Positions 15,830 to 40,416 are shown, counted from the first letter of the stretch. The stretch is DNA of 64,000 bases from an uncultured Candidatus Saccharibacteria bacterium (GCA_964426735.1 CAYRRP010000003.1:77378-141377), one strand, 5' to 3'. The notes: a model not told the origin generated them from the sequence alone. Translations and numbers: made by a program.

Positions 15830-15896
15830 ATCATAAAATACATAAGCATCACGAATGGACGTCCAACAAAAAAGTAGATGAAGTGATTTTACTGAT
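15830..15896. repeat. short member (copy D) of the conserved intergenic structured-element family
   Basis: It shares the 3' consensus AAAAGTAGATGAAGTGATTTTA with copies A, B and C. The outer stem is ATCATAAAAT / ATTTTAcTGAT, and the inner palindrome is GGACGTCC. Confidence 0.5.
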
Positions 15897-15897
15897 G

Positions 15898-17379
15898 TTA
15901 TCTTGTCTCTTCCCAAGAAATGATTTGGTATTGATCTGATGTCAATGGAAAACTCGGAGGCGGCCCGTACAATAAGTTGGCATCATAAATAATATCTCGA
16001 CTGTCGTATCCTGTACCGTCTGTGTATGCAAAACCGTATCGTAAACTACTTGCAATCATTCCGTACAGTGTCAATGAAGCTTTACTGTCATCCGAACATG
16101 ATGTTTCGTAATAATACCTTCCTGCACGTCCATTTTGTGCAACAAGTGCCGCATCTATACGAAGATTATTTGCTGAATACTGACCAACGTTTACGTTACC
16201 TTGCGATATAAGAGAGATTACATCTCGTCCATCATAATTTGTATATAATAAATTTGCATTGATTGTAATACTTGGTCGTGTTGCAGGGTTATCTGGGAAA
16301 CGTCCTACTGCAAGCGTCACACGAGCAGTATCAATCTGTCCATCTACCCACACATTATCTTCAAGGAAAATCAATCCATTCGAAGGAATCGCATAATTAC
16401 CGAGCAGTGTCTGCCCTCCTCCACCAGATGTTCGTATACTCCATGAACCCCACCCTGTTTGATTTTGCACATTAGAACAATTATTACCCACAGACTGAAG
16501 TGCAGTAACTCGATACAAATCAAACGTATCATTTGTTTTAAATACTACACGATACCCTTGATACCCTGATGCAGCAAAATATCTTCCTCCTGTTTGTGCA
16601 CCTGATTTAATTGACGCGAGATCAGTCGTCAATCCAACAAAATCAACCGCCGGAAGCGGAAATTGTCTACCTGATTCAAATACATCAGGTCGAGCAGGTA
16701 CACTATTTGGTGGTGCTTCGGCAGAACGAAACGTATCATTCACAGTACCACCTGGCAATGTTACGTGAGTATGCACTCCAAACTCATTGTTTCCTGAATG
16801 ATCAGGGTCATCATATACATCTCGCGAAGACGAAATAACGTTGTGAGCAAGTCCGTCAAAACGAATTCCACCGTTTGAGTGAATAGGGCCATAGACTTCA
16901 GTACCCTCTCCAAATCGAAGACTGTCATTGCTTACCACTGCATATTTTGCGAGAGATGGAATTGCAAAACGAGCAGTAATTGACCGCGCAACAGAAGGAT
17001 CATCGGTGATACGTCCAGTTGATTTTACAGTCACAATAGTAAACCCTGGTTGTGGTGGAGTAATCTCAAGAGTAAAGGAGCCAATCTGATTTCCATCTTT
17101 ATCATAAAATGGACGCACAGAAGGTGTGCTTGTACCAGTACCATCCTGATAGTCAGTCGGTGCATGTGCAAGATGCCATCGATAATAATCGACTCCAGAT
17201 TCTGCAATTTGAAGGGCTTGCTCTCTATACAATGCAAGACGTGACGCTTTAATATTTAATCCTGCCCAAGAAACCAGTCCTCCAATAATCACAACTGCAA
17301 TACTTCCAAACACAAGTGCTTGAACAAGAAGAGAACCTTTTTGTAGTTGGTATCCAGTAGTGGTGTGTATCTTTTTCAT
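15898..17379 (-). CDS. type IV pilus assembly protein, PilX-like (N-terminal PilX_N-type hydrophobic segment)
   Basis: N-terminus QKGSLLVQALVFGSIAVVIIGGLV. It is a large Gly/Thr/Asn-rich extracellular protein in a cluster with prepilins, pilC and pilB. Confidence 0.6.
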   Translation of the reverse strand: MKKIHTTTGYQLQKGSLLVQALVFGSIAVVIIGGLVSWAGLNIKASRLALYREQALQIAESGVDYYRWHLAHAPTDYQDGTGTSTPSVRPFYDKDGNQIGSFTLEITPPQPGFTIVTVKSTGRITDDPSVARSITARFAIPSLAKYAVVSNDSLRFGEGTEVYGPIHSNGGIRFDGLAHNVISSSRDVYDDPDHSGNNEFGVHTHVTLPGGTVNDTFRSAEAPPNSVPARPDVFESGRQFPLPAVDFVGLTTDLASIKSGAQTGGRYFAASGYQGYRVVFKTNDTFDLYRVTALQSVGNNCSNVQNQTGWGSWSIRTSGGGGQTLLGNYAIPSNGLIFLEDNVWVDGQIDTARVTLAVGRFPDNPATRPSITINANLLYTNYDGRDVISLISQGNVNVGQYSANNLRIDAALVAQNGRAGRYYYETSCSDDSKASLTLYGMIASSLRYGFAYTDGTGYDSRDIIYDANLLYGPPPSFPLTSDQYQIISWEETR

Positions 17380-17990
17380 AAATTATCTTTAAGATTACGC
17401 AGTGTTGCTGTGGTAGTCACTATAAGTGGTATTGGTGTTTTATTTGGATCTTTCTCAATAACCAACGTGATCTTTACCATGCGAATATTTGAAATCACTA
17501 CAGGTTGAGTAAGTGGTGATGTAGTTCCAGCAAATGTACTTGGATAATACGTAAACAAAGTTGTTGTTGCACTATTTGCAATATGCGAAACAACTGAAGA
17601 AACTTTTTCATTTGCCTCTACATATGCAAGTGGACTACCAGTTGGAGATAACTCTCCACGGCGAAGGGTTGTGCCGGACATAAAATACCGTATTCTTTCT
17701 TTATTCCCATCATTATTAATATCGCTATAAAAAGTTAACGCGGACGAACTTGCAACAGTTATAGGATATCCTCCAAGAGAAGATGGTGATGCTTCTCGCA
17801 ATTCAGCAACCATCTTTTTAATCACATGACGTGCATCAAGTTGTGCAGACAAACTATTTTGAGCAGAGAAATTTAAGGTAAAAATGTCACGCTGAAATGT
17901 TCCGACCGCAAGTGCAAGTAGGCCAATAATCGCAGAACTCACAACTATTTCAACAAGAGTGACACCTTGTGTATATTTCATATTATTCAC
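17376..17990 (-). CDS. prepilin-type N-terminal cleavage/methylation domain minor pilin
   Basis: N-terminus …TQGVTLVEIVVSSAIIGLLA. Confidence 0.75.
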   Translation of the reverse strand: MNNMKYTQGVTLVEIVVSSAIIGLLALAVGTFQRDIFTLNFSAQNSLSAQLDARHVIKKMVAELREASPSSLGGYPITVASSSALTFYSDINNDGNKERIRYFMSGTTLRRGELSPTGSPLAYVEANEKVSSVVSHIANSATTTLFTYYPSTFAGTTSPLTQPVVISNIRMVKITLVIEKDPNKTPIPLIVTTTATLRNLKDNL

Positions 17991-19782
17991 TTACCAGTAT
18001 AACATCTTGTAACTTCCAACTACTGTTAACAATGAGTGGAATCGTCTGAGTTTCATAACCTGTTTTAGTCACCCGAAGACTATATGTACCATCTGAAAGA
18101 CCTGTAAACACCACTTGACCTGGTGGAGTACATGAAGCGGTAAATGTAAATGCAATATCAGAAATATTCGGTGAACGACTCGTATCATCTGTATGGAGGT
18201 AGAGTTTGTATCTTAAATAACGTTTACCACTCGCCGATGAATGTATCGTACGGTTTGCAGTTGTGAAGTAGGTTGCATTTGTACCATCTGGCCCTACATA
18301 ATCCCATGTACCACCATCATCGTTTGTTGCAATCTGAAAACGTACAGCATTTGCACCCGTACTTGTCGCCTGATCCATCGGAGACCATACGATTTCTTGA
18401 AAATTTGAAACTCCGCCAGTATCAAAAGAAGATGATGTCAATGTTCCATCTGTTTGATACTGTCCGAGAATATATTTTAATGTTAAATCACCTGCTGGAT
18501 TATTGATTTCTATATTTCCATCACTACTTAAATACTGTGACATATTTGTTGATGTTGCTTGTCCTCCACCTGATGACCAGTTTGTTTGTACTAAAGAACC
18601 TTTACCGGTCACACGTGTTGCCAACACAGCACCACCAGAAGAAAGGAGTTCAACTGTAGCATCAGCAAGTGGTAGTGATGAAGCACTATCACGTACAGCC
18701 ACCAGTACTGTCTCTGGATCTTTTGGTGCAACAACAAGATCTACTTGTTGTGATGCGTCAGGGGAAAGCAAAAAAGAAATGAGAGGGTTTGCTCCAATCA
18801 AATCATACGTTCCTGATGTCATGGCGAGTGCGTAAGTATCCCACTCCATATTCGACAAAGAGACAGAACCTGAACCACCTGTTGAGTGACTCTGATCATA
18901 TTTAAGAATCACAGGGTTTGTTCCAATTGTTTTTGTGCCTGTTAAGGTGATTGGTATATTGGTTACTGTTGTACAGTTTGATGCGAAACTATTTACAGAT
19001 AATGTACTCAACTCATCAATAATAAAACTCTGCGCTGTTACTTGTTGCAACACCACGGTTGCATGAGGTTTGGTTGGGTTTGGGTTTGCAACCGTAATCG
19101 GATAGGTGCGTTCAGTAGAATACCCTGATTTAGTAACGGTAATTTCATATGCATTAATACCTGGAGGAGCGTCCACGATAGCGAGCAATCCATCATTATT
19201 GGTCACGTCATCAATCGAGATCGTACTTGTGGCACTATTGTTCTCTATATGCACACTTGCTTGTGGTACAGGATTGCCGTTTGCATCAAACACACGAATA
19301 AACAATGCTCCATTTGTTGATGCAGTTTCAAGACTTTTAGGAGCAACTCGTGATGTTACACTCACGGGTTTAAAATTACGACACAATACACATCCGATTT
19401 CTATTTCAACAACCTTAGAATCTGCGGGCGAAAGGTCATTTGGACTACCGCCAAGCGTTCCATCAAATGGATCATCAAAATTTCGTACTGTAGTCGTGGC
19501 GATAAATGTCGTCCCGTCTCGAACCAACGTCTGCACATGAGTCAACAAACCATCCGGAATACCTCCATCAATACCCACACTTGCATACGGAAGATTTTTT
19601 ACAATTTCCAACTGTTCGTTTGCCAAGTCGATAGCAGCAATCTTTTGTCGTGACACAGATACTGCTTGGTAAATAGAAGTATATGCATTGTATACACCAA
19701 CAATAATAATGGTAAACACAGAAACCCCCACCAGAAGCTCTATAAGCGTAAAACCTTTTTTATTTTTGATGTAATTTTGCAT
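17983..19782 (-). CDS. large type IV (pseudo)pilin with a prepilin N-terminus and a ~560-aa beta-rich C-terminal domain
   Basis: N-terminus KKGFTLIELLVGVSVFTIII is the classic class-III signal. The C-terminal domain is Thr/Ser/Gly-rich. Confidence 0.8.
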   Translation of the reverse strand: MQNYIKNKKGFTLIELLVGVSVFTIIIVGVYNAYTSIYQAVSVSRQKIAAIDLANEQLEIVKNLPYASVGIDGGIPDGLLTHVQTLVRDGTTFIATTTVRNFDDPFDGTLGGSPNDLSPADSKVVEIEIGCVLCRNFKPVSVTSRVAPKSLETASTNGALFIRVFDANGNPVPQASVHIENNSATSTISIDDVTNNDGLLAIVDAPPGINAYEITVTKSGYSTERTYPITVANPNPTKPHATVVLQQVTAQSFIIDELSTLSVNSFASNCTTVTNIPITLTGTKTIGTNPVILKYDQSHSTGGSGSVSLSNMEWDTYALAMTSGTYDLIGANPLISFLLSPDASQQVDLVVAPKDPETVLVAVRDSASSLPLADATVELLSSGGAVLATRVTGKGSLVQTNWSSGGGQATSTNMSQYLSSDGNIEINNPAGDLTLKYILGQYQTDGTLTSSSFDTGGVSNFQEIVWSPMDQATSTGANAVRFQIATNDDGGTWDYVGPDGTNATYFTTANRTIHSSASGKRYLRYKLYLHTDDTSRSPNISDIAFTFTASCTPPGQVVFTGLSDGTYSLRVTKTGYETQTIPLIVNSSWKLQDVILVSE

Positions 19783-19808
19783 TTTTATCTTCTCGAATAA
19801 TTACGAAC

Positions 19809-19921
19809 CAATAAAATTGCTTTAGGTGCGCGGCGCAAGAAGGTTTTGGAGCGAGCCTTACTTGTCGTAAGGCAAGTGGCAAAACTTGAATTGCAACAAA
19901 GCAGATGAAGTGATTTTATTG
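19809..19921. repeat. copy A of the conserved ~110-nt intergenic structured-element family
   Basis: Outer stem CAATAAAAT / ATTTTATTG. Inner stem GGTTTTG / CAAAACT. Central hairpin CCTTAC-ttgtc-GTAAGG. 3' consensus …GCAACAAAGCAGATGAAGTGATTTTA. Confidence 0.7.
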
Positions 19922-19930
19922 TGTTCGCGG

Positions 19931-21145
19931 TTAGATTGCATCAGCAAGACTATACGTAGGAGCAAGCATTGAAATAGCAAATATTCCCACCGCTGCACCG
20001 ATCACAATCATAAGCACAGGTTCAATCACAGAAGACATGTCTTTTGTCTTCTGATCTACTTCATCCTCATAAAACTGAGCTACTCCAACCAACATATCCC
20101 CTATTTTTCCTGTTTCCTCACCTACCGAAACCATTTCTCCTACGAAAATAGGGTAAAGATCTTCATGTTTTAAAAAGATTGCAGACATTAATTCTCCTTT
20201 CTGAATCACCTGCTCAATATTATCAAGCACAGCTTTATAATAGGTATTTTGAATAACCTCTTTTGTGACAGAAATAGCGACCACAATATCCACACCTGAG
20301 CTAATAAGTGACGAGAGTGTACGTGCGGTACGTGCCGAATTAACTTGTTTTACAATATCTCCAATCACGGGAGTATGTAATGCAACATAATCAGATAATC
20401 GTTTTCCTTTTGTTGTTCTTAATCCATAATATACACCTGCACACAAAGCAATTACTCCACCAATCATCACGAGAAAATAGTCTTTCATGATATCACTGAT
20501 ACCAATAATGATTCGTGTAGACAACGGGAGCTTAATACCGAGACCTTTAAACGTTTCTGTGAGTGTTGGAACCATGTATACCATCATCAATACACCGATC
20601 ACCGCCATCAGAGAAAAAATAACTGCAGGATACATCATTGCTCCTTTGATTTTCTTATTCAACTGATATGTCTTTTCCATCTGGTTTGAAATATTCTTGA
20701 GTGCAAGAATAAGGTTTCCAGATTCTTCACCTGCACGCACCATTGAAATAAACAAGGTTGAAAATACCTCTGGATAGGCCTTCATTGCTTCAGAGAGAGT
20801 AACACCTTTACTGATTTCTTCTTCAAGAGAGGTGAGGATTTTTTTAAACTGACCTTTTGACTGCCTGCCCATAATAGATATTGCTCGAGTAATCGGAAGT
20901 CCTGCCTCAATCATAGAAGAAAGATTTCGTGCAAACACGATCTTGTCATGAGTTTTTACTTTTCCTGAAAATGGCATCGAAAAAGATCCTGAGAAAAACT
21001 TTTGAGTATGTACTTCGGATGACGAAAGCACCTGTCCCCCTTCTTTTTTTATATCTCTATATAAAGAAAATTTATCGGGAGCTTCTTTTACTCCTTCATA
21101 TTCTTTACCTTCTGCATCAATTGCTTTGTATTTATATTGTGACAT
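19931..21145 (-). CDS. pilC: type IV pilus assembly inner-membrane platform protein PilC (GspF family)
   Basis: 404 aa with duplicated T2SSF domains and three TM regions. Confidence 0.9.
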   Translation of the reverse strand: MSQYKYKAIDAEGKEYEGVKEAPDKFSLYRDIKKEGGQVLSSSEVHTQKFFSGSFSMPFSGKVKTHDKIVFARNLSSMIEAGLPITRAISIMGRQSKGQFKKILTSLEEEISKGVTLSEAMKAYPEVFSTLFISMVRAGEESGNLILALKNISNQMEKTYQLNKKIKGAMMYPAVIFSLMAVIGVLMMVYMVPTLTETFKGLGIKLPLSTRIIIGISDIMKDYFLVMIGGVIALCAGVYYGLRTTKGKRLSDYVALHTPVIGDIVKQVNSARTARTLSSLISSGVDIVVAISVTKEVIQNTYYKAVLDNIEQVIQKGELMSAIFLKHEDLYPIFVGEMVSVGEETGKIGDMLVGVAQFYEDEVDQKTKDMSSVIEPVLMIVIGAAVGIFAISMLAPTYSLADAI

Positions 21146-21188
21146 ATATATTAAAACTGATGATTTACAAATTTGTAAATCATATTAT

Positions 21189-22940
21189 TTATTCTGAAAT
21201 TACACGAAGCACCTCTTCTATTGTAGTTGTACCTTGTACAGCCTGAAAAATACCATCTTCAATCATAGTGAGCATACCTTCTTTTTCTGCCTGTTTTTGT
21301 ATTTCATCTGCAGTTCCACCTTTCATAATAATTTCCTTAATCGCTGGTGATACTTTTAATATTTCATGGATACCTGCTCGTCCACCATATCCATCAGCAT
21401 CAGCAGTACCCTTCTTTGGTCTAAAGAATGGTATTTTTTCCCAATTATCACTTTTGCCAATTATTTTTTCAGCACGAAGTGCCTCGGCGATTTTATCAAG
21501 ATTTACCGACTTACCAAGAGTGTCGACTTCAGACTTTGTAAGAAAATATTTTTCTTTTGATTCTTCAGTTAACCGTCGCACCAAACGCTGCGCAATAATA
21601 ATATTGATAGTCGACACAAGCAAAAATGGCTCAACTTTCATATCGATAAGACGAGGAATAGCTCCTGCAGCACTGTTGGTGTGCAAGGTTGAGAGCACCA
21701 CGTGTCCTGTCAGTGATGCATTGATTGCTAGAGACGCTGTTTCATTATCTCGAATCTCTCCCACCATAATAATATCCGGGTCTTGTCGTACAAGTGTTCG
21801 AAGTCCTGAAGAAAACGTAAACCCTATTTCTGGACGAACCTGTGTCTGATTAATACGTTTCATCTGATATTCCACCGGGTCCTCGATAGTTGAGATGTTT
21901 ACATCAGGAGTATTGAGCATATCGAGAATAGTATAGAGAGTTGTAGTTTTACCAGATCCTGTAGGACCTGTAGTCAAAATCATTCCTGTTGTTGATTTGA
22001 TTGCTTTATGAATACGCTCAAGACCTTCTCCATGAAAATGAAGTTTCTCGAGAGTAAAGCCTGATACGGTTTCTCGAAGTAAACGCATTACGGTCTTTTC
22101 TCCATAATATGTCGGGAGTGTTGAGACACGAAAAGATACTTTCTCACCGTTCATATCAATCTTAAAACGACCATCTTGAGGAAGACGCTTTTCATCGAGC
22201 TTGAGACTTGCGAGCACTTTTATACGAGCACTAATAGACGGCGCAACATTTTTAGGTAGCACCATCGCATCATGAAGCAGACCATCAATACGGTATCGTA
22301 CCAAAAGCTCTGTTTCCATCGGCTCAATATGAATATCGGATGCATCTTGCAAGATTGCATGTTTCAAAAGCGTATCAACAATACGCACCACTGGCACATC
22401 ATCTGCCAATTTTTTCAAATCACTTTCTGAAACATCTTCCTCTAAATCCTCAACTTTTTTAAGAGAAAGGGCGTCCTTTTGAATCAGATCACCAAACTCA
22501 GCCTTCAAACTTTTTTGATACTGCAACAGTGCTGATTTCATTGATTCCCCATCAGTAAGACGTGGAAGAATTTTAAGACCTACCTTCTTTTTAACGAAAT
22601 CAATAGCTGTCAAATCTTCAGTATCAAGCATCGCTACCTCAAGTGCAGTGTCTGTTTTTTTGAATGCAACAATATTATGGTTGCGTGCGATAGGTTCTGG
22701 GATCAATGAGAGGACTTCAAAATCAAGTTTTTCACCCTTCAAGTCAACAAAGGGGATACCGAGAATATATGCTTGCATTCGACGAAGGTCATCTTCCGTT
22801 AGTTTACCTTTACTCACCAATATCTTCCCCAACCCTTCACCTGATTCTTCACCTTCTTTGGCCGCAGCAGTAACCTCAGCACGAGATACAAGACCTGAGT
22901 CAATAATGAAATCTTTAAGTTGTGTTTCTTCAATGTGCAT
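21189..22940 (-). CDS. pilB: type IV pilus assembly ATPase PilB (GspE family)
   Basis: Walker A TTGPTGSGKTTTLY, Asp/His boxes, and an N-terminal GSPII_E N domain. Confidence 0.95.
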   Translation of the reverse strand: MHIEETQLKDFIIDSGLVSRAEVTAAAKEGEESGEGLGKILVSKGKLTEDDLRRMQAYILGIPFVDLKGEKLDFEVLSLIPEPIARNHNIVAFKKTDTALEVAMLDTEDLTAIDFVKKKVGLKILPRLTDGESMKSALLQYQKSLKAEFGDLIQKDALSLKKVEDLEEDVSESDLKKLADDVPVVRIVDTLLKHAILQDASDIHIEPMETELLVRYRIDGLLHDAMVLPKNVAPSISARIKVLASLKLDEKRLPQDGRFKIDMNGEKVSFRVSTLPTYYGEKTVMRLLRETVSGFTLEKLHFHGEGLERIHKAIKSTTGMILTTGPTGSGKTTTLYTILDMLNTPDVNISTIEDPVEYQMKRINQTQVRPEIGFTFSSGLRTLVRQDPDIIMVGEIRDNETASLAINASLTGHVVLSTLHTNSAAGAIPRLIDMKVEPFLLVSTINIIIAQRLVRRLTEESKEKYFLTKSEVDTLGKSVNLDKIAEALRAEKIIGKSDNWEKIPFFRPKKGTADADGYGGRAGIHEILKVSPAIKEIIMKGGTADEIQKQAEKEGMLTMIEDGIFQAVQGTTTIEEVLRVISE

Positions 22941-22990
22941 AGGAAAGTAAAAAGTCCATAAAGTTGAAAGTCCTTAAAGTCGGAACTCAA
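22941..22990 (-). promoter_or_regulatory. pilB upstream region carrying phased GACTTT direct repeats
   Basis: The minus-strand reading is ccGACTTTaagGACTTTcaACTTTatgGACTTTTTACTTTcctATG, with repeats spaced 8-11 nt. It is the same repeat flavour as the dksA-like and comM promoter modules. Confidence 0.45.
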
Positions 22991-23057
22991 ACTTTGAATT
23001 ACATTTAGTATATCAAAAAAGTAGTTTTCTCTAGTGTAAAAATGTGTACAAGAAAAG

Positions 23058-23658: not shown

Positions 23659-24870
23659 ATGTTTGATTTAAAAGTAATCCATTCAGTTTTAACACAACTC
23701 GAAGAAGAGCGAGGTATTCCTCAAGCAAAAATTATTGAGGCTATTGAGCTCGCACTCGCAACTGCATATAAAAAAGAATATGGCAAAAAAGGCCAGATTG
23801 TTCGCGCTAAATTTGATATAAACTCAGGTGCAGTTGAAATGTACCAAGTTAAAATCGTTGTTGATGAGTCAACAGTCGTTATGGAGCTTGCAGACGATGC
23901 TGATCTCCCAGAAGGCATGGAGCTCTACAACCCAGAACACCACATGTTACTCGCCGATGCCAAACTCATCAAAAAGGATGCGGTACTCGGTGAAGAAATA
24001 GTCTTTCCACTCGAAGATAAGGCTGATTATAGCCGTATCGCAGCACAAACCGCAAAACAGGTAATCATGCAGAAAATCCGTGAAGCAGAAAAAGTGTCTG
24101 TACTTGGTGAATACGGTAAACGAGAAGGTGAGATTGTCACTGGTACTGTACAACGTATTGAACGAGGAAATATCTTTGTCGACATGGGTCGTGCAACTGG
24201 TCTACTTTCATACGAAGAGCAAATCCCTGGAGAACGATATGGTCAAGGTGAACGTGTACGAGCATACATGTACAGAGTAGAAGACTCAGGAAAAGGTGTA
24301 TTTTTGCGACTTTCACGTTCACATCCAAAATTCCTCGAGAAACTCTTTGAAGCAGAAGCTCCAGAGCTTGCAACAGGTGCAGTCGTAGTAAAATCAATCG
24401 CACGTGAAGCAGGTTCACGAACCAAGATCGCTGTTGCTTCAACTGATGAACATATTGACCCTGTGGGTTCTATGGTAGGTCAGCGTGGAGTACGTGTGGC
24501 GACTGTAATGTCTGAGCTTGGTGGCGAAAAAATTGATATTATCGAATGGAATGCAGATGCGAAGAAATTTATCGAAGAAGCCCTCTCTCCTGCAAAAATC
24601 CTTTCGATTGAGATCAATGAAGCTGACAAGTCAGCTAAAGTAGCAGTATCTCCAGACCAACAGTCACTTGCTATCGGAAAAGGTGGACAAAATGTACGTT
24701 TGGCAGCAAAACTCACTGGTTGGAGAATCGACATCCAGTCAGATGGCTCTACAGAGCCATTAGTAAGCGCAAGTGCAGCTCCAGTAGAAGCAGTTGCTGA
24801 CTCAGATGAAGGTTTTGCAGATATCTCAAGCCTAAAAGCTGATGCTCAAGAGGCAGAGAAGCAAGATTAA
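23659..24870 (+). CDS. nusA: transcription termination/antitermination factor NusA
   Basis: 403 aa with NusA N-terminal, S1 and KH domains (…GERYGQGERVRAYMY…GSMVGQRGVRV…). Confidence 0.95.
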   Translation: MFDLKVIHSVLTQLEEERGIPQAKIIEAIELALATAYKKEYGKKGQIVRAKFDINSGAVEMYQVKIVVDESTVVMELADDADLPEGMELYNPEHHMLLADAKLIKKDAVLGEEIVFPLEDKADYSRIAAQTAKQVIMQKIREAEKVSVLGEYGKREGEIVTGTVQRIERGNIFVDMGRATGLLSYEEQIPGERYGQGERVRAYMYRVEDSGKGVFLRLSRSHPKFLEKLFEAEAPELATGAVVVKSIAREAGSRTKIAVASTDEHIDPVGSMVGQRGVRVATVMSELGGEKIDIIEWNADAKKFIEEALSPAKILSIEINEADKSAKVAVSPDQQSLAIGKGGQNVRLAAKLTGWRIDIQSDGSTEPLVSASAAPVEAVADSDEGFADISSLKADAQEAEKQD

Positions 24871-31457: not shown

Positions 31458-31495
31458 TAGTTAACAGTAGACAGTCAATAGTCTTTAGTAAAAAC

Positions 31496-31523
31496 AAAAA
31501 ATCACCTTTCGGTGATTTTTTGT
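31496..31523 (+). terminator. intrinsic terminator ATCACC-tttc-GGTGAT-TTTTTT, nested inside an 11-bp inverted repeat (31466-31476 / 31534-31544)
   Basis: Hairpin plus U6. The flanking AGTAGACAGTC / GACTGTCTACT inverted repeat is exact. Confidence 0.75.
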
Positions 31524-31669
31524 TAATAACTTCGACTGTCTACTCATGACTTATGACTACACACTTCCTTGTCCGTCAACCCCTTGCACTCGAAAACCCT
31601 TGGTATATAATAGCTATATAGTAGATAGGGTGAGTCTTGAAAGATTACAAATTTAGTTTTACAACATCC

Positions 31670-31942
31670 ATGAATAAAGCATCATTGGTAGACGCAGTAT
31701 ATGCAGAGCTCGGTGGTACAAAAGTACAGGCTGAGAAAGTGGTTGATATTATTATCGACAACATTGTTGCTACTTTGAAAAAAGGTGGTGAAGTGTCTAT
31801 CGCGGGTCTTGGTATCTTTTCAACAAAAACTCGAGCGGCTCGACAGGCTCGAAACCCACGAACAGGTGAATCAATCTCTGTTCCTGCAATGAAAGTTCCT
31901 AAATTCCGCGCAGCTAAGGGTCTTAAGGACGCCGTAAAATAA
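31670..31942 (+). CDS. hup: DNA-binding protein HU
   Basis: MNKASLVDAV…GGEVSIAGLGIFSTKTRAARQARNPRTGESI… is the HU/IHF fold signature. The start is at the internal Met. Confidence 0.9.
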   Translation: MNKASLVDAVYAELGGTKVQAEKVVDIIIDNIVATLKKGGEVSIAGLGIFSTKTRAARQARNPRTGESISVPAMKVPKFRAAKGLKDAVK

Positions 31943-32097
31943 TAAAATCCATATTTGGTGAATTTCTTTGTTGCTTCACCTTTTTCTCTCCCGCGCAGTA
32001 CTCTTGTACAACTTGGTCAAGAAAAAGGTTTGTGCCTCAAACTTCACTCAAATCTGAAATTTTCTTACGTTTTATTCTCTAGAGAATATCAAAAAAC

Positions 32098-33156: not shown

Positions 33157-33301
33157 TGCGGGTGGGGAGAATCGGTCACGAGTAATTCTGGTTCCGTCGA
33201 ACCAGAATTCTCTCGACCCCGACTCGCGACCCACTCTGGTGAGCGGGTGCCCCCGCTCCGTCTTTCGATTCCCCATGCAAAGCTCTGCTTTGCTCACCCG
33301 C
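33157..33301 (-). ncRNA. GC-rich tRNA-like structured element (copy 1 of the tRNA-Gly-associated RNA motif)
   Basis: It begins GCGGGTG and ends CGATTCTCCCCACCCGCA, identical to the tRNA-Gly(TCC) acceptor 5' strand and last 18 nt. The core (GGGGAATCGAAAG…CGGAGCG…CGCGAG…GGGTCG…TGACCGATTC) is conserved with 37372..37496, and the stems are compensatory. Confidence 0.55.
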
Positions 33302-33347
33302 ACACATATCAAAAAACCGGCATAAAACCGGTTTTTTGATATGTGTG
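33301..33347. repeat. perfect 20-bp palindrome CACACATATCAAAAAACCGG-cataaaa-CCGGTTTTTTGATATGTGTG (bidirectional terminator-like)
   Basis: Exact inverted repeat between tRNA-Gly(TCC) and the tRNA-like element. Confidence 0.85.
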
Positions 33348-33416
33348 CGGGTGGGGAGAATCGAACTCCCGTATACTGCTTGGAAGGCAGTCATTCTACC
33401 ACTAAATTACACCCGC
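33346..33416 (-). tRNA. tRNA-Gly (anticodon TCC)
   Basis: GCGGGTG acceptor, anticodon arm ACTGC-CTTCCAA-GCAGT, T-arm GGGAG-TTCGATT-CTCCC, 71 nt. Confidence 0.9.
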
Positions 33417-33479
33417 GATTGAAATACTCTAGCAGAAAAACAAGTATTCGGCAATTAAAAATGTTATATACTTATACGT

Positions 33480-34607: not shown

Positions 34608-34632
34608 AAGGTATTGTTACAATATACAGATT

Positions 34633-35145
34633 ATGAAAAAAATCTGGAACTCTTTTTGGAATTGGTACGATAGTCACCCAACACTCACCCTTGGTATAAC
34701 CCTCGGGCTCTTTAGTTTACAAATTATTCACCTGATTTGGCTCTTAACTAGTGTTATTTGGACTAAAGCATTTGGTCACGCACTCTTTGCACCACATGAA
34801 GCTTTTGAGCGCATTCTTGTTCTTGTAGATTATACTGAAATACCAGCACTCATCAGTGCCTCTCTTGTATATATTGACGATTTACGTAAAAAAATAAGCC
34901 CAAAAGCTATCATGTACCTCATCTTCCTCAACACTCAATGGCTTCACCTTTTCTGGATCACTGATGAATATGTAGTAAGTCAATTTACACAAACTGTTCT
35001 TATCCCCTCATGGCTCGCATGGATTGCTATTCTTATAGACTATCTCGAACTTCCAGTGATACTTGATACGCTCAAAAAATTTATTTCATCGCTTCATAAA
35101 GGAGAAGTGAAGCAGGCTTTCCAAGCTATTTCTGAACGAGACTAG
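34633..35145 (+). CDS. integral membrane hypothetical protein (170 aa)
   Basis: Four predicted TM helices. It is Trp-rich and has no recognised domain. Confidence 0.45.
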   Translation: MKKIWNSFWNWYDSHPTLTLGITLGLFSLQIIHLIWLLTSVIWTKAFGHALFAPHEAFERILVLVDYTEIPALISASLVYIDDLRKKISPKAIMYLIFLNTQWLHLFWITDEYVVSQFTQTVLIPSWLAWIAILIDYLELPVILDTLKKFISSLHKGEVKQAFQAISERD

Positions 35146-35202
35146 TTACCCTAAAACATTCTTCCTGAAGAATGTTCGGGCGAACATTTTAGTAAAAATG
35201 TT

Positions 35203-35499
35203 TTAGCCGGCTTTTTCAGCAGCAATTTGTAACACCATATCAAAATTATCTTCTTTTTGTGCTTTATTCGCTCGTGTAAAACCACACTTTTCACATACTT
35301 GAATAATATTGTATTCACTCCCCTTCTTTTGTATTTCCGTTGGACGCATCAGTCCTCCACATGTTTCCGCTCGATCACCTGGGTCAATATCAACATGTTT
35401 AGACCACAAACACTGTGGGCAATGATTCGTAAAACCATTCCCTACCACAGTTTCTCCGCAGTGTTCACAGACAAAATCTTCAATAGTTCGTTTGAACAT
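35203..35499 (-). CDS. RNHCP-domain zinc-ribbon protein
   Basis: TNHCPQCLWSKHVD is the RNHCP signature, and CEHCGE/CEKCG are additional Cys pairs. Confidence 0.7.
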   Translation of the reverse strand: MFKRTIEDFVCEHCGETVVGNGFTNHCPQCLWSKHVDIDPGDRAETCGGLMRPTEIQKKGSEYNIIQVCEKCGFTRANKAQKEDNFDMVLQIAAEKAG

Positions 35500-35539
35500 A
35501 CACCATGTATAGTAACACAATCAATCCAAAAAAAGCCCC

Positions 35540-36109
35540 TCACAAGGAGGGGACTTCTAGTGTCTGTACATCAAATGAAAGTGGATGTCCTGCAGGTGTA
35601 GAAAACACCGCACAGGGAACTGCCAGAAATTGATAGCTGCGCATTGGCGTGTAAACGGGGTCAGAATAAGCATGGTTAAATAAAACAACATAACGCACCT
35701 TTTCATAATCTACTTCCCTACCTACACCAACAGAAGATTGCATGAACTTTTTTTCCGCTTGATTAATCCATGTAGGAAAACTGATAGCAGTTCCTACATG
35801 AAAACCAATAACATCAAAAAGGAAGTATGGAACCGGATAGTTTGCTAAAAATGAGTCAAGTACATGATTTAGCATCCTTCCTTGAAACATCTCGACAGCA
35901 CGCTCTTTGGTGATAATTTTTGGACAATCTGATGTGAAGTATTCAGAAAAACCATTCTGATACAAACCTCTCAACAGTTTCACGTCACCCGAACACAAAA
36001 CAATCTTCAATGAACTCCTCGGTGGATCCTCTAAAACTTTTTTCCAATTTACATACATCATCACAACACCTCCTCGTCTAAATACTAAACTTATTGAATT
36101 AATTGTCAA
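35540..36109 (-). CDS. hypothetical protein (probable start at the internal MMYVNWKK)
   Basis: ORF with no recognised motif. Confidence 0.4.
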   Translation of the reverse strand: MTINSISLVFRRGGVVMMYVNWKKVLEDPPRSSLKIVLCSGDVKLLRGLYQNGFSEYFTSDCPKIITKERAVEMFQGRMLNHVLDSFLANYPVPYFLFDVIGFHVGTAISFPTWINQAEKKFMQSSVGVGREVDYEKVRYVVLFNHAYSDPVYTPMRSYQFLAVPCAVFSTPAGHPLSFDVQTLEVPSL

Positions 36110-36153
36110 AATTGTAATTTAGCACTTTTATGTTACACTAGTTGAGTATTATA

Positions 36154-36226
36154 CGGGGTGTGGTGTAACGGCTAACATGCTTGATTTGGGATCAAGTGAC
36201 TCCGGGTTCGAATCCCGGCACCCCGA
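36154..36226 (+). tRNA. tRNA-Pro (anticodon TGG)
   Basis: CGGGGTG/CACCCCG acceptor, anticodon loop TTTGGGA, T-arm CCGGG-TTCGAAT-CCCGG. Confidence 0.9.
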
Positions 36227-36247
36227 CAATAGATTTTCTAAATACAC

Positions 36248-36673
36248 CTAAAGTATTATATCTTCCAGCATCTTTACCCTACATACTCGTTTTTCTTGAT
36301 CCACATACACCGTAGCTACATCAAACTGCCACTCCGTATCATCTGAGACATTTTTATCAAGCAAATACGACTGTATAGTCCGAGCAAGCCTCTGGAGTTT
36401 CCATGGGTGCATATTATCCTCTGGCCGATACCTATTATTCGTTTCACGTGGCACATCTTCAAACTTTCTCGATACACTCTTCACCTCAACAAAGTGAATT
36501 TTTTTGTCCTTTATAGCTACCACATCCAATTCTCCCCACTTTTTTAAATAGTTACGATCAGTCACCTTAAAACCTTTTCTCTTAAGATACGTACACACCG
36601 CTTCTTCCCCAATTGCACCCAATATCTGTTTTTGGGTTTTAGTATGAACCTTCAATGCAGCTTTTTCTCTCAT
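36248..36673 (-). CDS. yraN: YraN-family (UPF0102) predicted endonuclease
   Basis: …ILGAIGEEAVCTYLKRKGFKV…GELDVVA…IHFVEVKS… The start is at the internal Met MREKAAL. Confidence 0.75.
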   Translation of the reverse strand: MREKAALKVHTKTQKQILGAIGEEAVCTYLKRKGFKVTDRNYLKKWGELDVVAIKDKKIHFVEVKSVSRKFEDVPRETNNRYRPEDNMHPWKLQRLARTIQSYLLDKNVSDDTEWQFDVATVYVDQEKRVCRVKMLEDIIL

Positions 36674-36718
36674 ACATATATAGTATACAAGCTTAATCCT
36701 TTCACGTGTAACTATATT

Positions 36719-36740
36719 ATATGTTACATATGTAACATAT
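36719..36740. promoter_or_regulatory. perfect 22-nt palindrome ATATGTTACAT|ATGTAACATAT upstream of yraN (candidate operator)
   Basis: Exact dyad symmetry 46-67 nt upstream of the yraN start. Confidence 0.5.
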
Positions 36741-37027
36741 AATATTTGAGTAGGTACAGGAGGATTCGTAGTATAAAGTACACAATTTCCTTTGTATAAA
36801 GCCATTTTTGGAGACTTTTGGACACAAAGTCTTATACTTTGAAGCCTGTCAAAGACTGTCTCTAATACACATGTCCACAGACTTATCCACAGTTTTCAAC
36901 ATATTTTGTGTAAAACTGACTTTAATTTAAAGACTTTGTCCCACAGAATAGGGGTTTAATGGAGACAGTCCGTGATCAAATAGACAAAACTTGGCAAAAG
37001 CTAGAAAAAAGGTATGATACATATATT

Positions 37028-37101
37028 GCACCCGTAGCTCAATTGGATAGAGTATTTGTCTTCGGAACAAAGGGTTGCAGGTTCGAGTCCTGCCGGGTGC
37101 A
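37028..37101 (+). tRNA. tRNA-Arg (anticodon TCG)
   Basis: GCACCCG/CGGGTGC acceptor, anticodon loop CTTCGGA, T-arm GCAGG-TTCGAGT-CCTGC. Confidence 0.9.
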
Positions 37102-37107
37102 CACGAC

Positions 37108-37136
37108 AAAAAATCCCAACTGCTTGGGATTTTTTG
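37108..37136 (+). terminator. intrinsic terminator ATCCCAA-ctgc-TTGGGAT-TTTTT
   Basis: Hairpin plus U-run immediately after tRNA-Arg. Confidence 0.7.
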
Positions 37137-37296
37137 CTACGTGTGCACAACGGAGACATGTTTTTTCAGCAGAAAAAAAGGTCGAGTTGTGGACCGAAGG
37201 AAATTTCAATTCGACGGAATTGAAATTATCCGAAGTGTACAAGACAAAACCCTATGTATTTGAATTTCTCCCCACTTTGTGTAAAATGAAGGGGAA

Positions 37297-37367
37297 GCGG
37301 CTATGGTTTAGTGGTAGAACACGTCCTTGCCAAGGATGAGATTCGGGTTCGATTCCCGGTAGCCGCA
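37297..37367 (+). tRNA. tRNA-Gly (anticodon GCC)
   Basis: GCGGCTA/TAGCCGC acceptor, anticodon loop TTGCCAA, T-arm CGGG-TTCGATT-CCCG. Confidence 0.9.
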
Positions 37368-37371
37368 CAGA

Positions 37372-37496
37372 AAAATCGGAGATTTTTATCCGGGAATCGA
37401 AAGCCGGAGCGAGGGTTCCCGTCAGCAGACGGGACCGCGAGGCCGGGTCGGGAAATTTTACGAGTGGCGACGAGTAAAATATTCCTGACCGATTCC
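37372..37496 (+). ncRNA. GC-rich structured element (copy 2 of the tRNA-Gly-associated RNA motif) in the cca leader
   Basis: Small hairpin AAAATC-gga-GATTTT, then CCGGGAATCGAAAGCCGGAGCG…TCCCGTC-agca-GACGGGA…CGCGAG…GGGTCG…variable hairpin…TGACCGATTCC. It aligns with 33157..33301 (-) and shows compensatory stem changes. Confidence 0.55.
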
Positions 37497-37545
37497 AGTG
37501 CCCATACTCATAAATAAGGCCTCCAAAAGCCTTAAAATCACTCAT

Positions 37546-39018
37546 ATGAATACAAACTTCACTATCCCTGTCGAAGTGTCACGTGTAACACAAACCCTCG
37601 AAAATGCCGGTTTTGAGGCTTTTTTGGTTGGTGGATGTGTACGAGATCTTATCCTCAACAAAAAACCAAAAGATTGGGATGTTACTACCAACGCAACACC
37701 TGAGCAAATCATTGCTTTGTTTCCACATACCTTTTACGAAAACAACTTTGGAACAGTTGGTGTTGTTTCAGATGAAACAGAAGATGACACTCTTAAAACT
37801 ATTGAAGTTACGCCATACCGTCTTGAATCAGAGTATTCTGACAATCGACGCCCAGACGCTGTTACTTTTTCACAAAATCTCACAGATGACTTAAGGCGAC
37901 GCGACTTCACCATTAACGCCCTTGCATACTCAGTATCTAAAGGACAACTCACTGATGTCTTTAATGGACAAGCTGATATTTCTGCTCAAACTATACAAAC
38001 AGTAGGGAATGCGGTCGAAAGACTCACTGAAGATGCCCTTCGTATCATGCGAGCAGTGCGGTTTCATGTGGAACTTGGCTTTATCCTTTCACGTGAAACG
38101 GAAAAAGCGGTACTTGAACACGGTCATTTACTACAAAACATCTCAAAGGAACGCATTCGTGACGAATTTACAAAGATTATTATGTCTCCGCAGCCAATGA
38201 ATGGCTTACTCATGCTGAAAAAGCTGAATTTACTTCAGTATATTGTACCAGAACTGGAAAAAACTATTGGGGTAGAGCAGAACCGGGCACATTCATACGA
38301 TGTATGGGAACATTTACTTCGAAGCCTCCAGACTGCAGCAGATAAGAACTGGCCTCTTGATATTAGACTTACCGCTTTATTTCACGATATTTCAAAACCT
38401 GAGACACGTCGATGGGGAAAAGAGCAGAATACGTGGACATTTTACGGTCATGAAGTAGTTGGTTCACGTGTAACACGGAAAATACTTACTGATTTGCGAT
38501 ATCCGAATAAACTAATTGATAAAGTGGTGACAATGGTGCGATGGCATATGTTTTTTTCTGACACAGAACAGATAAGCCTCTCTGCGGTCCGTAGAATGAT
38601 CGTAAATGTTGGACGAGAGAATATCTGGGATTTGATGAATGTACGCATCTGCGACCGTGTAGGAACTGGTAGACCCAAAGAAGATCCGTACCGCCTCCGC
38701 AAATACCATGCAATGATAGAGGAGGCTCTTCGTGACCCGATTACTGTAGGAATGTTGAAAATAGATGGTAAACGTTTAATCGATGTTACACAGGGAACAC
38801 CTGGTCCTAAAATAGGGTATACACTTCATGCATTACTCGAAGAGGTACTCGAAGATCCAACTAAAAACACTGTGGAATATTTAGAAAAACGCTCTGTTGA
38901 GCTCTATACTATGGATGAGATCGAATTAAAAAAGCTCGGTGAACAAGGTAAACAAACGAAAGAAGAAATAGATCAGCAGGAAATCTCAAAAATTCGTAAA
39001 GGACACAAAGTAAAGTAG
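37546..39018 (+). CDS. cca: CCA-adding tRNA nucleotidyltransferase (Pol-beta head plus HD domain)
   Basis: …GFEAFLVGGCVRDLIL…DWDV… head domain and an HD-domain C-terminus. The start is taken at MNTNFTIP, not the track start 37498. Confidence 0.85.
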   Translation: MNTNFTIPVEVSRVTQTLENAGFEAFLVGGCVRDLILNKKPKDWDVTTNATPEQIIALFPHTFYENNFGTVGVVSDETEDDTLKTIEVTPYRLESEYSDNRRPDAVTFSQNLTDDLRRRDFTINALAYSVSKGQLTDVFNGQADISAQTIQTVGNAVERLTEDALRIMRAVRFHVELGFILSRETEKAVLEHGHLLQNISKERIRDEFTKIIMSPQPMNGLLMLKKLNLLQYIVPELEKTIGVEQNRAHSYDVWEHLLRSLQTAADKNWPLDIRLTALFHDISKPETRRWGKEQNTWTFYGHEVVGSRVTRKILTDLRYPNKLIDKVVTMVRWHMFFSDTEQISLSAVRRMIVNVGRENIWDLMNVRICDRVGTGRPKEDPYRLRKYHAMIEEALRDPITVGMLKIDGKRLIDVTQGTPGPKIGYTLHALLEEVLEDPTKNTVEYLEKRSVELYTMDEIELKKLGEQGKQTKEEIDQQEISKIRKGHKVK

Positions 39019-39028
39019 TTCTGCAAAT

Positions 39029-39141
39029 AAGTTAAACTGCTTCAGATGCTAGGCGCGAGAGAATTTGTGAGTGAGTTGTACTTGTCGTACGGTGAGCGAA
39101 CAAATTTGAATCGCAACAACGCAGATGGAGTAATTTAACTT
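39029..39141. repeat. copy B of the conserved ~110-nt intergenic structured-element family
   Basis: Outer stem AAGTTAAA / TTTAACTT. Inner stem AATTTGT / ACAAATT. Central hairpin TTGTAC-ttgtc-GTACGG with G-U pairs. 3' consensus …GCAACAACGCAGATGGAGTAATTTA. Confidence 0.7.
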
Positions 39142-39497
39142 ATTTAACAACAAAAAACCGCCCAAGGTGGCGTCATTTGTCGCAAAGACGGCTCACGGGC
39201 GGCTAAAGAAGTATTTCCCAGCAAGAATAAGGATTTGATAAATATCTCAATCTTAAAATATATAGTAGATAGTGTAGATATGTATATCTCTTGTCCTATC
39301 GAACCAAGAAACCTTCATGGGGGAGAACCTGCAGATTCTCAAATGTACAAACGCACAACTTTATGTGTAAAGAACTTTAAACGACAGAATTGTTTGTTTC
39401 TTTTTTGATGAAACTCTCGATCCTGTTCTGGAGTAACTATATCAGACAGATAAAAGTCATGTAAAGGACTATGCTGTGGATAACTTTGTCTTATTAA

Positions 39498-40268
39498 TTA
39501 TATAGCAATGTCCAATTGAAGAGGACAGTGGTCTGACCCTAAAATATCATTGTGTATAGTCATATTTTTCACATTTGAAAGAAGTGATGTGTCAACAAAA
39601 AAATAATCGATTCTCCATCCAACATTTCTACTTCGTGCAAATGTTTTCATATCCCAGTATGTGTATATATCTTTTGCATCAGGATTTTTTTCTCTCCATA
39701 CATCAACAAAATTATTTTGCACCACTTCATCAATCCATGCTCGTTCGATAGGGAGGAAGCCTGTATTTTTCTCATTTTCTTTTGGTCGAGCAAGATCAAC
39801 AGCGGTATGTGCAGTATTTACATCTCCACAGAAAATCACCTTCATACCTTTTTTACGAAGCTTAAGAATAAACACAAGAAAGTGTTTATAAAACTCGAGT
39901 TTATATGCAAGACGCTCTGGACCACCTCCTCCGTTAGGGAAATAGCAGTTCAGTAACACAAATTCATCAAAATACGCAACGATGAGACGCCCTTCTTGAT
40001 CCATTTCGGGAATACCCATACCATACTCGACTTTATTTGGTTCAATCTTTGAGTAAATAGCGACACCGCTGTACCCCTTACGTGTTTTTGAGGAATTAAA
40101 ATATGAAAAATACCCTAAAGGAGAGCGTACTTCATCTGGAAGTTGATGTGATTCTGATTTAGTTTCCTGTATACAAAAAATATCCGGACTTTGGTCAATA
40201 AGCCACTGAAACGCACCTTTTTTAAAAGATGCCCGTGCACCATTTACATTCCATGAGATTATTTTCAT
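39498..40268 (-). CDS. exoA: exodeoxyribonuclease III (AP endonuclease)
   Basis: MKIISWNVNG…CIQETK… is the EEP-family ExoIII/Xth signature. Confidence 0.9.
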   Translation of the reverse strand: MKIISWNVNGARASFKKGAFQWLIDQSPDIFCIQETKSESHQLPDEVRSPLGYFSYFNSSKTRKGYSGVAIYSKIEPNKVEYGMGIPEMDQEGRLIVAYFDEFVLLNCYFPNGGGGPERLAYKLEFYKHFLVFILKLRKKGMKVIFCGDVNTAHTAVDLARPKENEKNTGFLPIERAWIDEVVQNNFVDVWREKNPDAKDIYTYWDMKTFARSRNVGWRIDYFFVDTSLLSNVKNMTIHNDILGSDHCPLQLDIAI

Positions 40269-40296
40269 TACTAAAAGATATTACCACACCTTGAAT

Positions 40297-40416
40297 GAAG
40301 AAGTTAAATTGCTCCAGATGCTAGGCGCGAGAAAATTTATGAGTGAACCGTACTTGTAGTACGGTGAATGAATAAATTTGAATCGTAACAACGCAGATGG
40401 AGTAATTTACTTCTTT
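40297..40416. repeat. copy C of the conserved ~110-nt intergenic structured-element family
   Basis: About 85% identical to copy B. Outer stem GAAGAAGTTAAATT / AATTTAcTTCTT. Inner stem AATTTAT / ATAAATT. Central hairpin CCGTAC-ttgta-GTACGG. Its 3' arm overlaps the xerC-like stop. Confidence 0.7.

Follow-up and report, generated by a model that had tools for sequence, protein, structure and literature searches.

A 64,000-nucleotide (nt) stretch of DNA from an uncultured Candidatus Saccharibacteria bacterium (GCA_964426735.1, CAYRRP010000003.1:77378-141377; hereafter the window) contains at least 10 copies of a structured repeat that folds as a hairpin and attaches by one arm to the stop codons of genes. 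The copies belong to one superfamily of imperfect palindromes, 110 to 135 nt long, that runs through the Patescibacteria, the bacteria of the candidate phyla radiation (CPR), and this large family of hairpin repeats of about 120 bases has apparently not been described before. The presence of a copy at one site and its absence from the same site of a close relative, together with swaps of one subfamily for another, is the behavior of mobile or recombining DNA. With confidence that stands at about even, we read the repeat as a non-autonomous mobile palindrome, similar to MITEs (transposable elements of the miniature inverted-repeat kind) and to REPINs, that is strongly targeted to the ends of genes.

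The preliminary description of the window, which was made from its sequence alone, listed four copies (A to D; Table 1), and all four are where it placed them. It spoke of at least four; that count was true and too low, as the covariance model R1, which we built from 44 copies, raises the number to at least 10, a density of about one copy per six to eight genes. The shared 22-nt 3' block, AACAAMGCAGATGRAGTRATTT, is equally well founded, with four occurrences in the window at three or fewer mismatches and 0.01 expected from shuffles. The 5' block, given as GCT(A/T)GG(T/C)GCG, had been misaligned, and the true block is AAATTGCTTYAGNTGC(G/T)AGGCG. The four listed copies do share one absolute orientation, as had been stated, but this does not extend to the window as a whole, in which three further copies lie on the - strand.

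Beyond the window, a scan of one genome per GTDB species with a degenerate 22-mer returned 66 stretches, 44 to 46 of which contain the whole element, with the 5' block 90 to 100 nt upstream of the 22-mer; the remaining hits, of the form AAAAAAG.AGATG, were rejected as chance matches in coding DNA. The hosts are metagenome-assembled genomes (MAGs) of Saccharibacteria, Paceibacteria, Nomurabacteria, Kaiserbacteria and Zambryskiibacteria, unclassified 'bacterium' bins, and one MAG labelled Nitrospiraceae, and the sources of the homologues of the window's proteins name them Parcubacteria, Minisyncoccota or Zambryskibacteria, which places the window in this radiation. With R1, on which family members score 100 to 138 bits, we found about 70 copies in 361 kb of CPR loci (50 loci, with up to four copies per 8 kb) and 30 previously unseen copies among metagenome contigs, and no match in 136 kb of control loci drawn from the chance hits. 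The copies are all intergenic, and some loci are dense in them (four copies in 8 kb in locus L020 and three in 3 kb in L068). Several subfamilies can be told apart by their lower stems, and each recurs across different genomes; near-identical ones are found even in genomes that are distant from each other. Class 1 is the type on which the preliminary description was based, whereas the lower stem is CAGATTTG...CAAATATGG in class 2, GGTCGCTTAT...AGAAGATGAGAT in class 3 and GGATTTTTG...CAAAAAGACC in class 4; the internal loop GAGGC/AACAAAG is common to classes 1, 2 and 4.

Two further observations concern the membership of the family. A contig from a MAG labelled Nitrospiraceae (L062; CAYPOT010000080.1) carries three copies beside genes orthologous to those of the Parcubacteria locus L020, and this contig is probably mis-binned. 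Three members from different MAGs (L018, 1282-1423; L053, 5983-6129; L068, 7413-7596) share the same apical insert of about 60 nt, with the sequence ...ATGTCYTTCGYCTGCTGRCT...ACATCTTCG...CTCTTCGCT..., which looks like a second small repeat nested in the first.

Copies A, B and C each fold as a single continuous imperfect hairpin of about 120 nt (z scores of -5.6 to -10.4), and their outer stems, inner 7-bp stem and central hairpin pair as previously described; the fold of copy D alone is not significant (z score of -1.3). Two blocks of 22 nt, imperfect inverted repeats of one another that are near-invariant in 44 copies, pair as the lower stem (5' block, AAATTGCTTTAGATGC; 3' block, GCAGATGAAGTRATTT). 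The hairpin has invariant purine-rich internal loops, AGNUG/AGAUG and GAGGC/AACAAAG, and variable stems with compensating changes, and it is closed at the apex by a GUAC...GUAC hairpin of 7 bp with a variable 5-nt loop. RNAalifold assigns 41 pairs to the alignment, 26 of which show compensatory double changes. Standard pairs occupy 93.7% of the paired cells, versus 72.7% in 500 shuffles and 36 to 47% when partners were slid against each other; cells changed on both sides number 393, versus 123 +/- 10 and 75 to 142 in the same two controls; and the covariation score is 0.58, versus 0.19 and 0.10 to 0.15. The covariation to which the preliminary description drew attention is therefore real.

Covariation alone is nevertheless weak evidence here for a function as RNA, because a correction of palindromes at the level of DNA, arm against arm, would also yield changes that appear compensatory. 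Given that possibility, a folded single strand is better attested by the asymmetry of G-U pairs and by the invariance of the loops. Cells with G-U outnumber those with A-C by 186 to 24, and by 66 to 24 when four fixed G-U columns are set aside; sequence by sequence, G-U exceeds A-C in 29 and the reverse is true in 5. Unpaired positions are 71% purine. The + strand is the more stable in all 43 of 43 copies with the outer stem included (mean of -51.3 versus -37.2 kcal/mol), and the reverse complements of A, B and C adopt the same fold much more weakly, at -30.8, -29.6 and -36.0 kcal/mol. The folding strand is thus the + strand, the orientation used in the preliminary description. Column 33 (G or U) covaries with column 107 (A or C) in a non-Watson-Crick manner; this and the tandem G-A appositions point to a structured surface for recognition. 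Inspection led us to drop a K-turn reading of the conserved loops, which have no 3-nt bulge beside the tandem G-A pairs. We likewise rejected mutation bias as the source of the G-U excess, as deamination of the exposed coding or lagging-template strand should produce the opposite asymmetry.

The ATG-RAG-TRA mini open reading frame (mini-ORF) to which the preliminary description gave weight is present in all class-1 copies, an observation that is partly circular in that the search pattern contained these triplets, and it is absent from the divergent subfamilies. It is made of bases that belong to the 3' strand of the conserved lower stem, where they covary with the 5' strand (columns 113 to 119), no Shine-Dalgarno sequence precedes it, and in about 80% of copies local transcription runs antisense to the strand on which it lies. 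That it is translated as a start-stop element that stalls ribosomes, or as a leader peptide, we find scarcely credible; the triplets appear to be incidental to the paired stem.

The syntenic loci of relatives, recovered by means of exoA and the pilin-like protein, show that the sites differ in state. Copy C is absent from L070, L071 and L072, whose exoA identities are 89%, 86% and 76%, and copy B is present in L071 and absent from L070 and L072. At site B, the empty sites lack the whole unit, including its outer stem, and no target duplication is seen at junctions that are themselves palindromic (TAAA...TTTA), where direct and inverted repeats are indistinguishable. The site of copy D is occupied by a full-length copy in L074 (125.6 bits), by a different perfect palindrome in L075 and by an empty 22-nt spacer in L076; copy D, which had been recognized as shortened, can therefore be specified as a remnant truncated at its 5' end. 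The pilC 3' site is filled in all of the relatives, but its occupant varies: the window has a class-1 copy there, L074 one of class 4, L075 one of class 2 and L076 one of class 3/4. In the spacer between the genes for S15 and an NYN protein, L032 and L035 have antisense class-1 copies, L071 has a sense copy beside the NYN start, and the window and L072 have a plain terminator and no copy. Several sites are filled across 48 to 65% protein identity. The variable middle of copy B is 90%, 87% and 84% identical to those of copies in three other species-level genomes, and 84% identical to the middle of copy C within its own genome; in one of those three genomes (L013), the pilin-like orthologue is only 56% identical. 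In the closest relative, the site of copy B (L070, 3820-3930) is taken up by an unrelated repeat of TACGAAT units around the palindrome CTACGAATGAATTCATTCGTAG.

These data do not support the preliminary description's choice of a functional RNA in place of a MITE, in that the copies are gained, lost and swapped between relatives as mobile DNA is. The generic features of MITEs are there, with conserved terminal inverted repeats and with filled and empty sites at B, C, D and the S15-NYN spacer. An autonomous partner did not emerge: in about 0.5 Mb of loci, the 5' and 3' blocks never lie 260 nt to several kb apart, and extra ORFs beside copies are mutually unrelated and not repeated.

Equally distinctive is the position of the copies relative to genes, which we derived from simple gene calls around 79 copies. 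In 66 of the 79, the 3' side faces the stop codon of an opposite-strand gene, and in 61 of the 79 the distance between this stop and the hairpin base is -16 to +13 nt. The new metagenome copies bear the rule out: of the 27 with a gene call on the 3' side, 21 have the stop within -13 to +3 nt. The stop codon lies 0 to 18 nt past the conserved 3' block, usually inside the outer stem, and about 12 copies have a stop codon that overlaps the ATTT(T)A end of the element itself. Spacing on the 5' side is loose, at 6 to 340 nt from the start of the next gene or 5 to 412 nt from a stop. The genes abutted in this manner in the window are rpsG, rpmB, hup, pilC and those for the pilin-like protein, the M23 peptidase and the XerC-like protein. 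The copies at 3965 and 31938, which are on the - strand, stand at the ends of + strand genes, and orientation therefore follows the gene and not the replichore; replication direction was rejected as the cause, as the GC skew of the window tracks gene orientation and shows no switch. Copy B, which lies in sense after a stop, is an exception shared by two metagenome copies that are probably its orthologues. Thirteen further copies are of a start type, in which the 3' arm ends beside a co-directional start codon; these include, in the window, the copies in the nusA and rpsL leaders, the former with a positional orthologue at 58% protein identity. The stops that abut 32 class-1 copies are TAG in 13, TAA in 16 and TGA in 3, and the share of TAG seems high for AT-rich genomes.

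In about 80% of copies the folding strand runs antisense to the gene that it abuts, which excludes a role, allowed by the preliminary description, as a leader or as a processing or termination module on the sense strand of that gene's mRNA. The 90 nt upstream of 43 copies contain no conserved promoter or positional signal, no U-tract follows the complete hairpin (mean T per 10 nt of 3.3 on the + strand and 3.5 on the complement), and a terminator scan flags no copy in the 38800-40700 region, which includes B and C. Two other functions in RNA deserve closer scrutiny. The folding strand may itself be transcribed and act as RNA, whether as small structured antisense RNAs or as a one-way barrier that stops antisense transcription, such as divergent firing from the promoter of the next gene, exactly at the 3' boundary of a gene; at the nusA and rpsL leaders, the hairpin in sense would then be an attenuator or a structure that sequesters the ribosome-binding site. 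The G-U pairs, the purine-rich loops and the greater stability all lie on the + strand, and the 3' end of that strand is pinned to a convergent stop or, in the 13 start-type copies, to a co-directional start. Copy B is necessarily transcribed in the folding orientation, being in the cca 3' untranslated region (UTR); the nusA copies keep their position across the divergence noted above; and relatives that lack the element have a plain terminator at the corresponding position after S15. We nonetheless think this reading rather unlikely. There is no conserved promoter at a fixed upstream distance, and the start codon of the next gene, often 6 to 50 nt from the 5' end, leaves little room for one; the U-tract is lacking, and the scan passes over both B and C; a barrier would have no need of invariant 22-nt blocks; and presence or absence among close relatives argues against an indispensable role.

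The complement strand could instead serve the host as a cis-element in the mRNA of the abutted gene, as a protective 3' hairpin, an RNase III-type site between cistrons or a brake on ribosomes. Such a brake has a reported precedent in E. coli, where REP sequences within 15 nt of a stop codon are said to slow terminating ribosomes. In most copies here the hairpin starts at the stop codon or inside it, its complement still folds strongly (-30 to -36 kcal/mol; z scores of -4 to -8.6), the abutted genes include those of the highly expressed proteins S7, L28, S15 and HU, and the same sites are filled across deep divergence. Every sign of selection on pairing, however, is on the other strand, as the G-U and A-C counts and the stabilities given above attest; in the sense of the mRNA, the loops are pyrimidine-rich and no U-tract follows; and close relatives do without the element or have a plain terminator in its stead. 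We therefore regard a cis-acting role in the mRNA as unlikely.

The outer stem, a median of 12 bp beyond the conserved blocks, is specific to each locus. At site C, the arm GGAAAGAAGTAA is the end of the integrase gene, with its last codons and stop (GGA AAG AAG TAA), and this end is unchanged in L070, which has no element; the other arm, GAAGAAGTTA, is consequently an inverted copy of the gene end. The outer arms of the copies in L032 and L035 differ by paired indels. Palindromes of the same kind form without the family: at 33299-33349 (-) in the window, a 27-bp perfect palindrome (-50.3 kcal/mol) surrounds the terminator core AAAAAACCGG...CCGGTTTTTT, with a 5' arm that is the last bases of a tRNA gene (33346-33416) and a 3' arm that is their inverted copy, and at the D-site orthologue in L075 (8366-8423) the 3' arm of the perfect palindrome GGAAACTCGGTAATTAAAAAAACCAGCGCATGCGCTGGTTTTTTTAATTACCGAGTTTCC is the last 15 coding nt plus the stop of the upstream gene. 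From these cases we infer that palindromes at gene ends in these genomes are lengthened outwards by a general process, either snap-back or template switching within a strand.

Such a process invites the proposal that the whole family is maintained purely as palindromes in DNA, through template switching or quasi-palindrome correction, with no sequence-specific function and with covariation as a mutational by-product. The perfect palindromes that swallow gene ends at ordinary terminators, the paired indels in L032 and L035, and the arm of copy C that inverts a preexisting coding end all favor it. It leaves unexplained, however, the 22-nt blocks and non-Watson-Crick loops that are invariant across the radiation, the fixed positions of G-U pairs and their excess on one strand, the discrete subfamilies shared by distant genomes, and the attachment of one particular arm to stop codons. 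We consider it improbable as a full account.

Two other gene-end structures in the window resemble these palindromes. At 9000-9120 (+), a different long hairpin stands at the recJ stop, with a perfect outer stem of 20 bp (CAGAAGTTGGTGAATATTAT / ATAATATTCACCAACTTCTG) and a G+C-rich interior that is unrelated to the family; R1 gives it only 25.8 bits. At 31466-31545 (+), past a 509-aa gene, the terminator core ACAAAAAATCACC-TTTC-GGTGATTTTTTGT lies inside a second outer stem, GTAGACAGTC / GACTGTCTAC, and is another nested gene-end palindrome.

The structure of the copies and their mobility are shown by the data above; the mechanism that follows is proposed. Under the reading that we favor, in which the repeat is mobile and targeted to gene ends, copies would be inserted into the 3' boundary of genes, and the conserved blocks and loops would serve a trans-acting enzyme as its recognition surface on one folded strand, either single-stranded DNA or RNA. 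The outer stem would arise at insertion or later, as an inverted copy of the gene end produced by snap-back or intrastrand template switching. The antisense orientation would persist because the mRNA then carries the weaker complement, in which A-C mismatches are concentrated in the lower stem, presumably the part that a terminating ribosome must open; with this weaker complement, ribosomes should reach the stop codon and transcription should continue into the next gene.

Several points weigh against this account of a mobile repeat. We found no transposase among the window proteins scanned, no partner insertion sequence (IS) with the same ends in about 0.5 Mb of loci and no clear target-site duplication at the palindromic junctions. 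The occupancy of sites across 48 to 65% protein identity and the depth of the covariation look more like long-term function than like a selfish repeat. The antisense placement of the folding strand is accounted for only by the selection argument just given, and tolerance alone does not account for the attachment of a specific arm to stop codons. No phylogeny polarizes the individual gains and losses, and, because the taxon labels of some MAGs are unreliable, the case for horizontal spread depends mainly on the comparison at 56% identity. It may also be, at a probability well below that of a mobile repeat, that the elements are not selfish at all and constitute a new structured nucleic-acid signal specific to the Patescibacteria, a scaffold read antisense as RNA or as folded template-strand DNA. 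Such a signal would mark the 3' boundary of many genes, and the nusA and rpsL leaders, for a lineage-specific protein, and might insulate genes from antisense transcription or direct a transposase-free, copy-choice rewriting of gene-end hairpins.

The preliminary description did not recognize the element as a known repeat family, and the searches made here found no match to a known repeat or RNA family. Rfam 15 returned four tRNAs and nothing else for the whole window at the gathering threshold, and a chance match to MIR821 alone for 38950-40500 (B and C) at E values up to 10; no known ribozyme family matches the element. A blastn search with copy B against 50,697 phage records and 72,556 plasmids gave no match, and the single 22-mer match among viral contigs was discarded, as R1 did not confirm it. 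No description of such an element was found in the literature on CPR repeats, RNA motifs and terminator elements. Group II intron domain 5 (D5), suggested by GAGCCGUA...UACGGU, was rejected in the absence of an Rfam match at E up to 10; D5 is a 34-nt unit with an AGC triad, a bulge and a GNRA loop, in contrast to the apical hairpin of the family. A canonical intrinsic terminator, which may be bidirectional, is similar in standing directly after the stop with A-rich and T-rich flanks to its stem; the element is four to five times longer, with invariant internal loops, and was rejected as such a terminator by the missing U-tract on either strand and the silence of the terminator scan at B and C.

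Among bacterial repeats, the closest likenesses are to the REP/REPIN-RAYT systems, including the SMAG repeats of Stenotrophomonas, and to ERIC. Some of the REP and REPIN properties compared here are described in a review (PMC2229807). Like REPs, the copies are extragenic, sit at gene 3' ends and are near, or supply, the stop codon; like REPINs, which are hairpins of about 100 nt, they combine a variable middle with conserved ends, a likeness of architecture that is by analogy only; and with both they share a strand-specific fold, long vertical persistence and sequence subfamilies. REPs and REPINs have no target-site duplication, and none was seen here in the comparison of filled and empty sites at B. 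They differ in having no GTAG at their ends, in conserved blocks that are not self-palindromic, in conserved purine-rich loops, in lying antisense to the abutted gene, and in spanning a whole radiation where a REP family spans one genus. A Pfam scan of 10 of the approximately 75 proteins of the window found no transposase, and no search aimed at RAYT was made. With ERIC, or IRU, the element has in common a similar size (127 bp for ERIC), an imperfect hairpin formed by the whole element, an intergenic location, and the short strings GTGAGCGAAC and CAAC..GCAG.ATG, which also occur in an E. coli ERIC copy; ERIC also has orientation-dependent effects in mRNA (PMC2229807). The hosts, however, are different, ERIC inserts at TA in either orientation, and membership in ERIC was rejected when an E. 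coli copy scored 11.1 bits on R1, far below the range of members. Correia/NEMIS, RUP, BOX, RPE and YPAL are likewise short, non-coding, AT-rich repeats with inverted ends that form RNA hairpins, they show filled and empty sites between relatives, and YPAL targets regions of dyad symmetry (PMC2229807). These repeats, by contrast, are confined to a genus or family and usually have TA ends with duplications or a partner IS, and none has been reported as anchored to convergent stops through one of its arms or as showing compensatory change of this depth.

The remaining comparison is with the attC sites of integrons, which are imperfect hairpins at or over the stop of the preceding ORF, fold functionally on the strand antisense to that ORF, and combine a variable middle with conserved unpaired bases. 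If the family were attC-like, its bottom-strand hairpins would be recombination sites at which a tyrosine recombinase moves gene cassettes, a proposal that draws on the position directly after or over the stop codon, the antisense folded strand, the variable middle on a conserved base, and the copy-dense loci L020 and L068. The genes beside the copies are instead syntenic housekeeping genes (r-proteins, pilC, tpiA, nusA and cca), and gene-content differences between relatives are not bounded by elements. Inspection of the alignment revealed no RYYYAAC/GTTRRRY core sites (the R and L sites of attC) at the hairpin base and no GTT in the 5' arm; no cassette array stands beside an integrase gene (intI) with attI; and the XerC-like gene is syntenic in relatives that have no copy C. 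We judge attC-like recombination very improbable. The element thus resembles REP/REPIN and ERIC-type repeats most, yet by these comparisons belongs to none of the named families, from which it is set apart by its radiation-wide range, the depth of compensatory change, its invariant purine-rich loops and its antisense attachment to stop codons.

Table 1. Members of the repeat family in the 64,000-nt window, with their R1 scores, folding energies, gene settings and counterparts in other loci
Copy	Coordinates	Strand	Type and conserved parts	R1 score (bits)	Energy (kcal/mol)	Setting	Counterparts
A	19806..19926	+	full-length class 1; 3' block 19895-19916	113.4	-48.4	between start of pilin-like gene (17983-19782, -) and stop of pilC/T2SSF (19931-21145, -); antisense to both	orthologous copies in L005 and L022
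B	39025..39145	+	full-length class 1; 3' block 39115-39136	121.1	-44.2	few nt past cca stop (37546-39018, +); sense, within cca 3' UTR
C	40297..40416	+	full-length class 1; 3' block 40387-40408	118.5	-51.3	3' outer arm holds stop and last codons of XerC-like integrase gene (40407-41393, -); exoA start 27 nt from 5' end; antisense, between integrase and exoA, by the called genes of a contig with an identical exoA protein
D	15828..15898	+	remnant with only 3' block (15868-15889) and outer stem	17		adjoins stop of 493-aa gene (15898-17379, -)
	1501..1634	+	divergent; lower stem GGATTTTTG...CAAAAAGACC	32.7		3' arm at rpsG stop (S7, 1631-2101, -)	same site filled in L034
	2653..2784	-	class 2; lower stem CAGATTTG...CAAATATGG	63.5		sense, about 50 nt upstream of rpsL (S12, 2182-2607, -)
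	3965..4084	-	class 3; GGTCGCTTAT...AGAAGATGAGAT	16.9 (weak)	-36.3 (z score -5.7)	3' arm at rpmB stop (L28, 3712-3954, +)	orthologous site filled in L009; interior almost the same as in the copy at the pilC site of L076
	23524..23654	+	divergent	40.1		sense, ends few nt upstream of nusA start (23659-24870, +)	positional orthologue in L041 (1123-1255)
	31938..32068	-	class-2-like	40.3		3' arm at stop of HU gene (31670-31942, +)
	46203..46333	+	class 3	35.4 versus 32.3 (strand ambiguous by R1 alone; set by likeness to L062, 5118-5248)		3' arm at stop of LysM/M23 peptidase gene (46328-47506, -)	orthologous site filled in L035

The neighborhood of copy B holds one more feature of note. Between that copy and the exoA stop, about 300 nt (39150-39465, -) are conserved in L070, L071 and L072, with a promoter-like site on the - strand (TTTACA-18-TATAGT with TG; 10 of 12 matches) and a terminator-like hairpin, GCCGCCC...GGGCGGTTTTTT, at the end. 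We regard this region as a candidate for a non-coding RNA gene. Rfam gave no match to it at E up to 10, and an ARAGORN search for tmRNA was negative, on which ground a tmRNA was rejected.

Patescibacteria account for much of the diversity of bacteria, and with about 1 Mb of DNA their genomes are considered streamlined, with few mobile elements. The occurrence of a structured repeat at about one in every six to eight genes, and the conservation of its 22-nt blocks throughout the radiation, would indicate that a process in these bacteria has gone unrecognized, which could be a mobilization that proceeds without an obvious transposase or a new signal at gene boundaries. The attachment of one arm to stop codons and the antisense fold lead to concrete, testable predictions. 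R1 is itself of practical use as a sensitive marker of Patescibacteria contigs, as it was in flagging the contig binned as Nitrospiraceae, and can explain assembly breaks and improve the annotation of gene ends.

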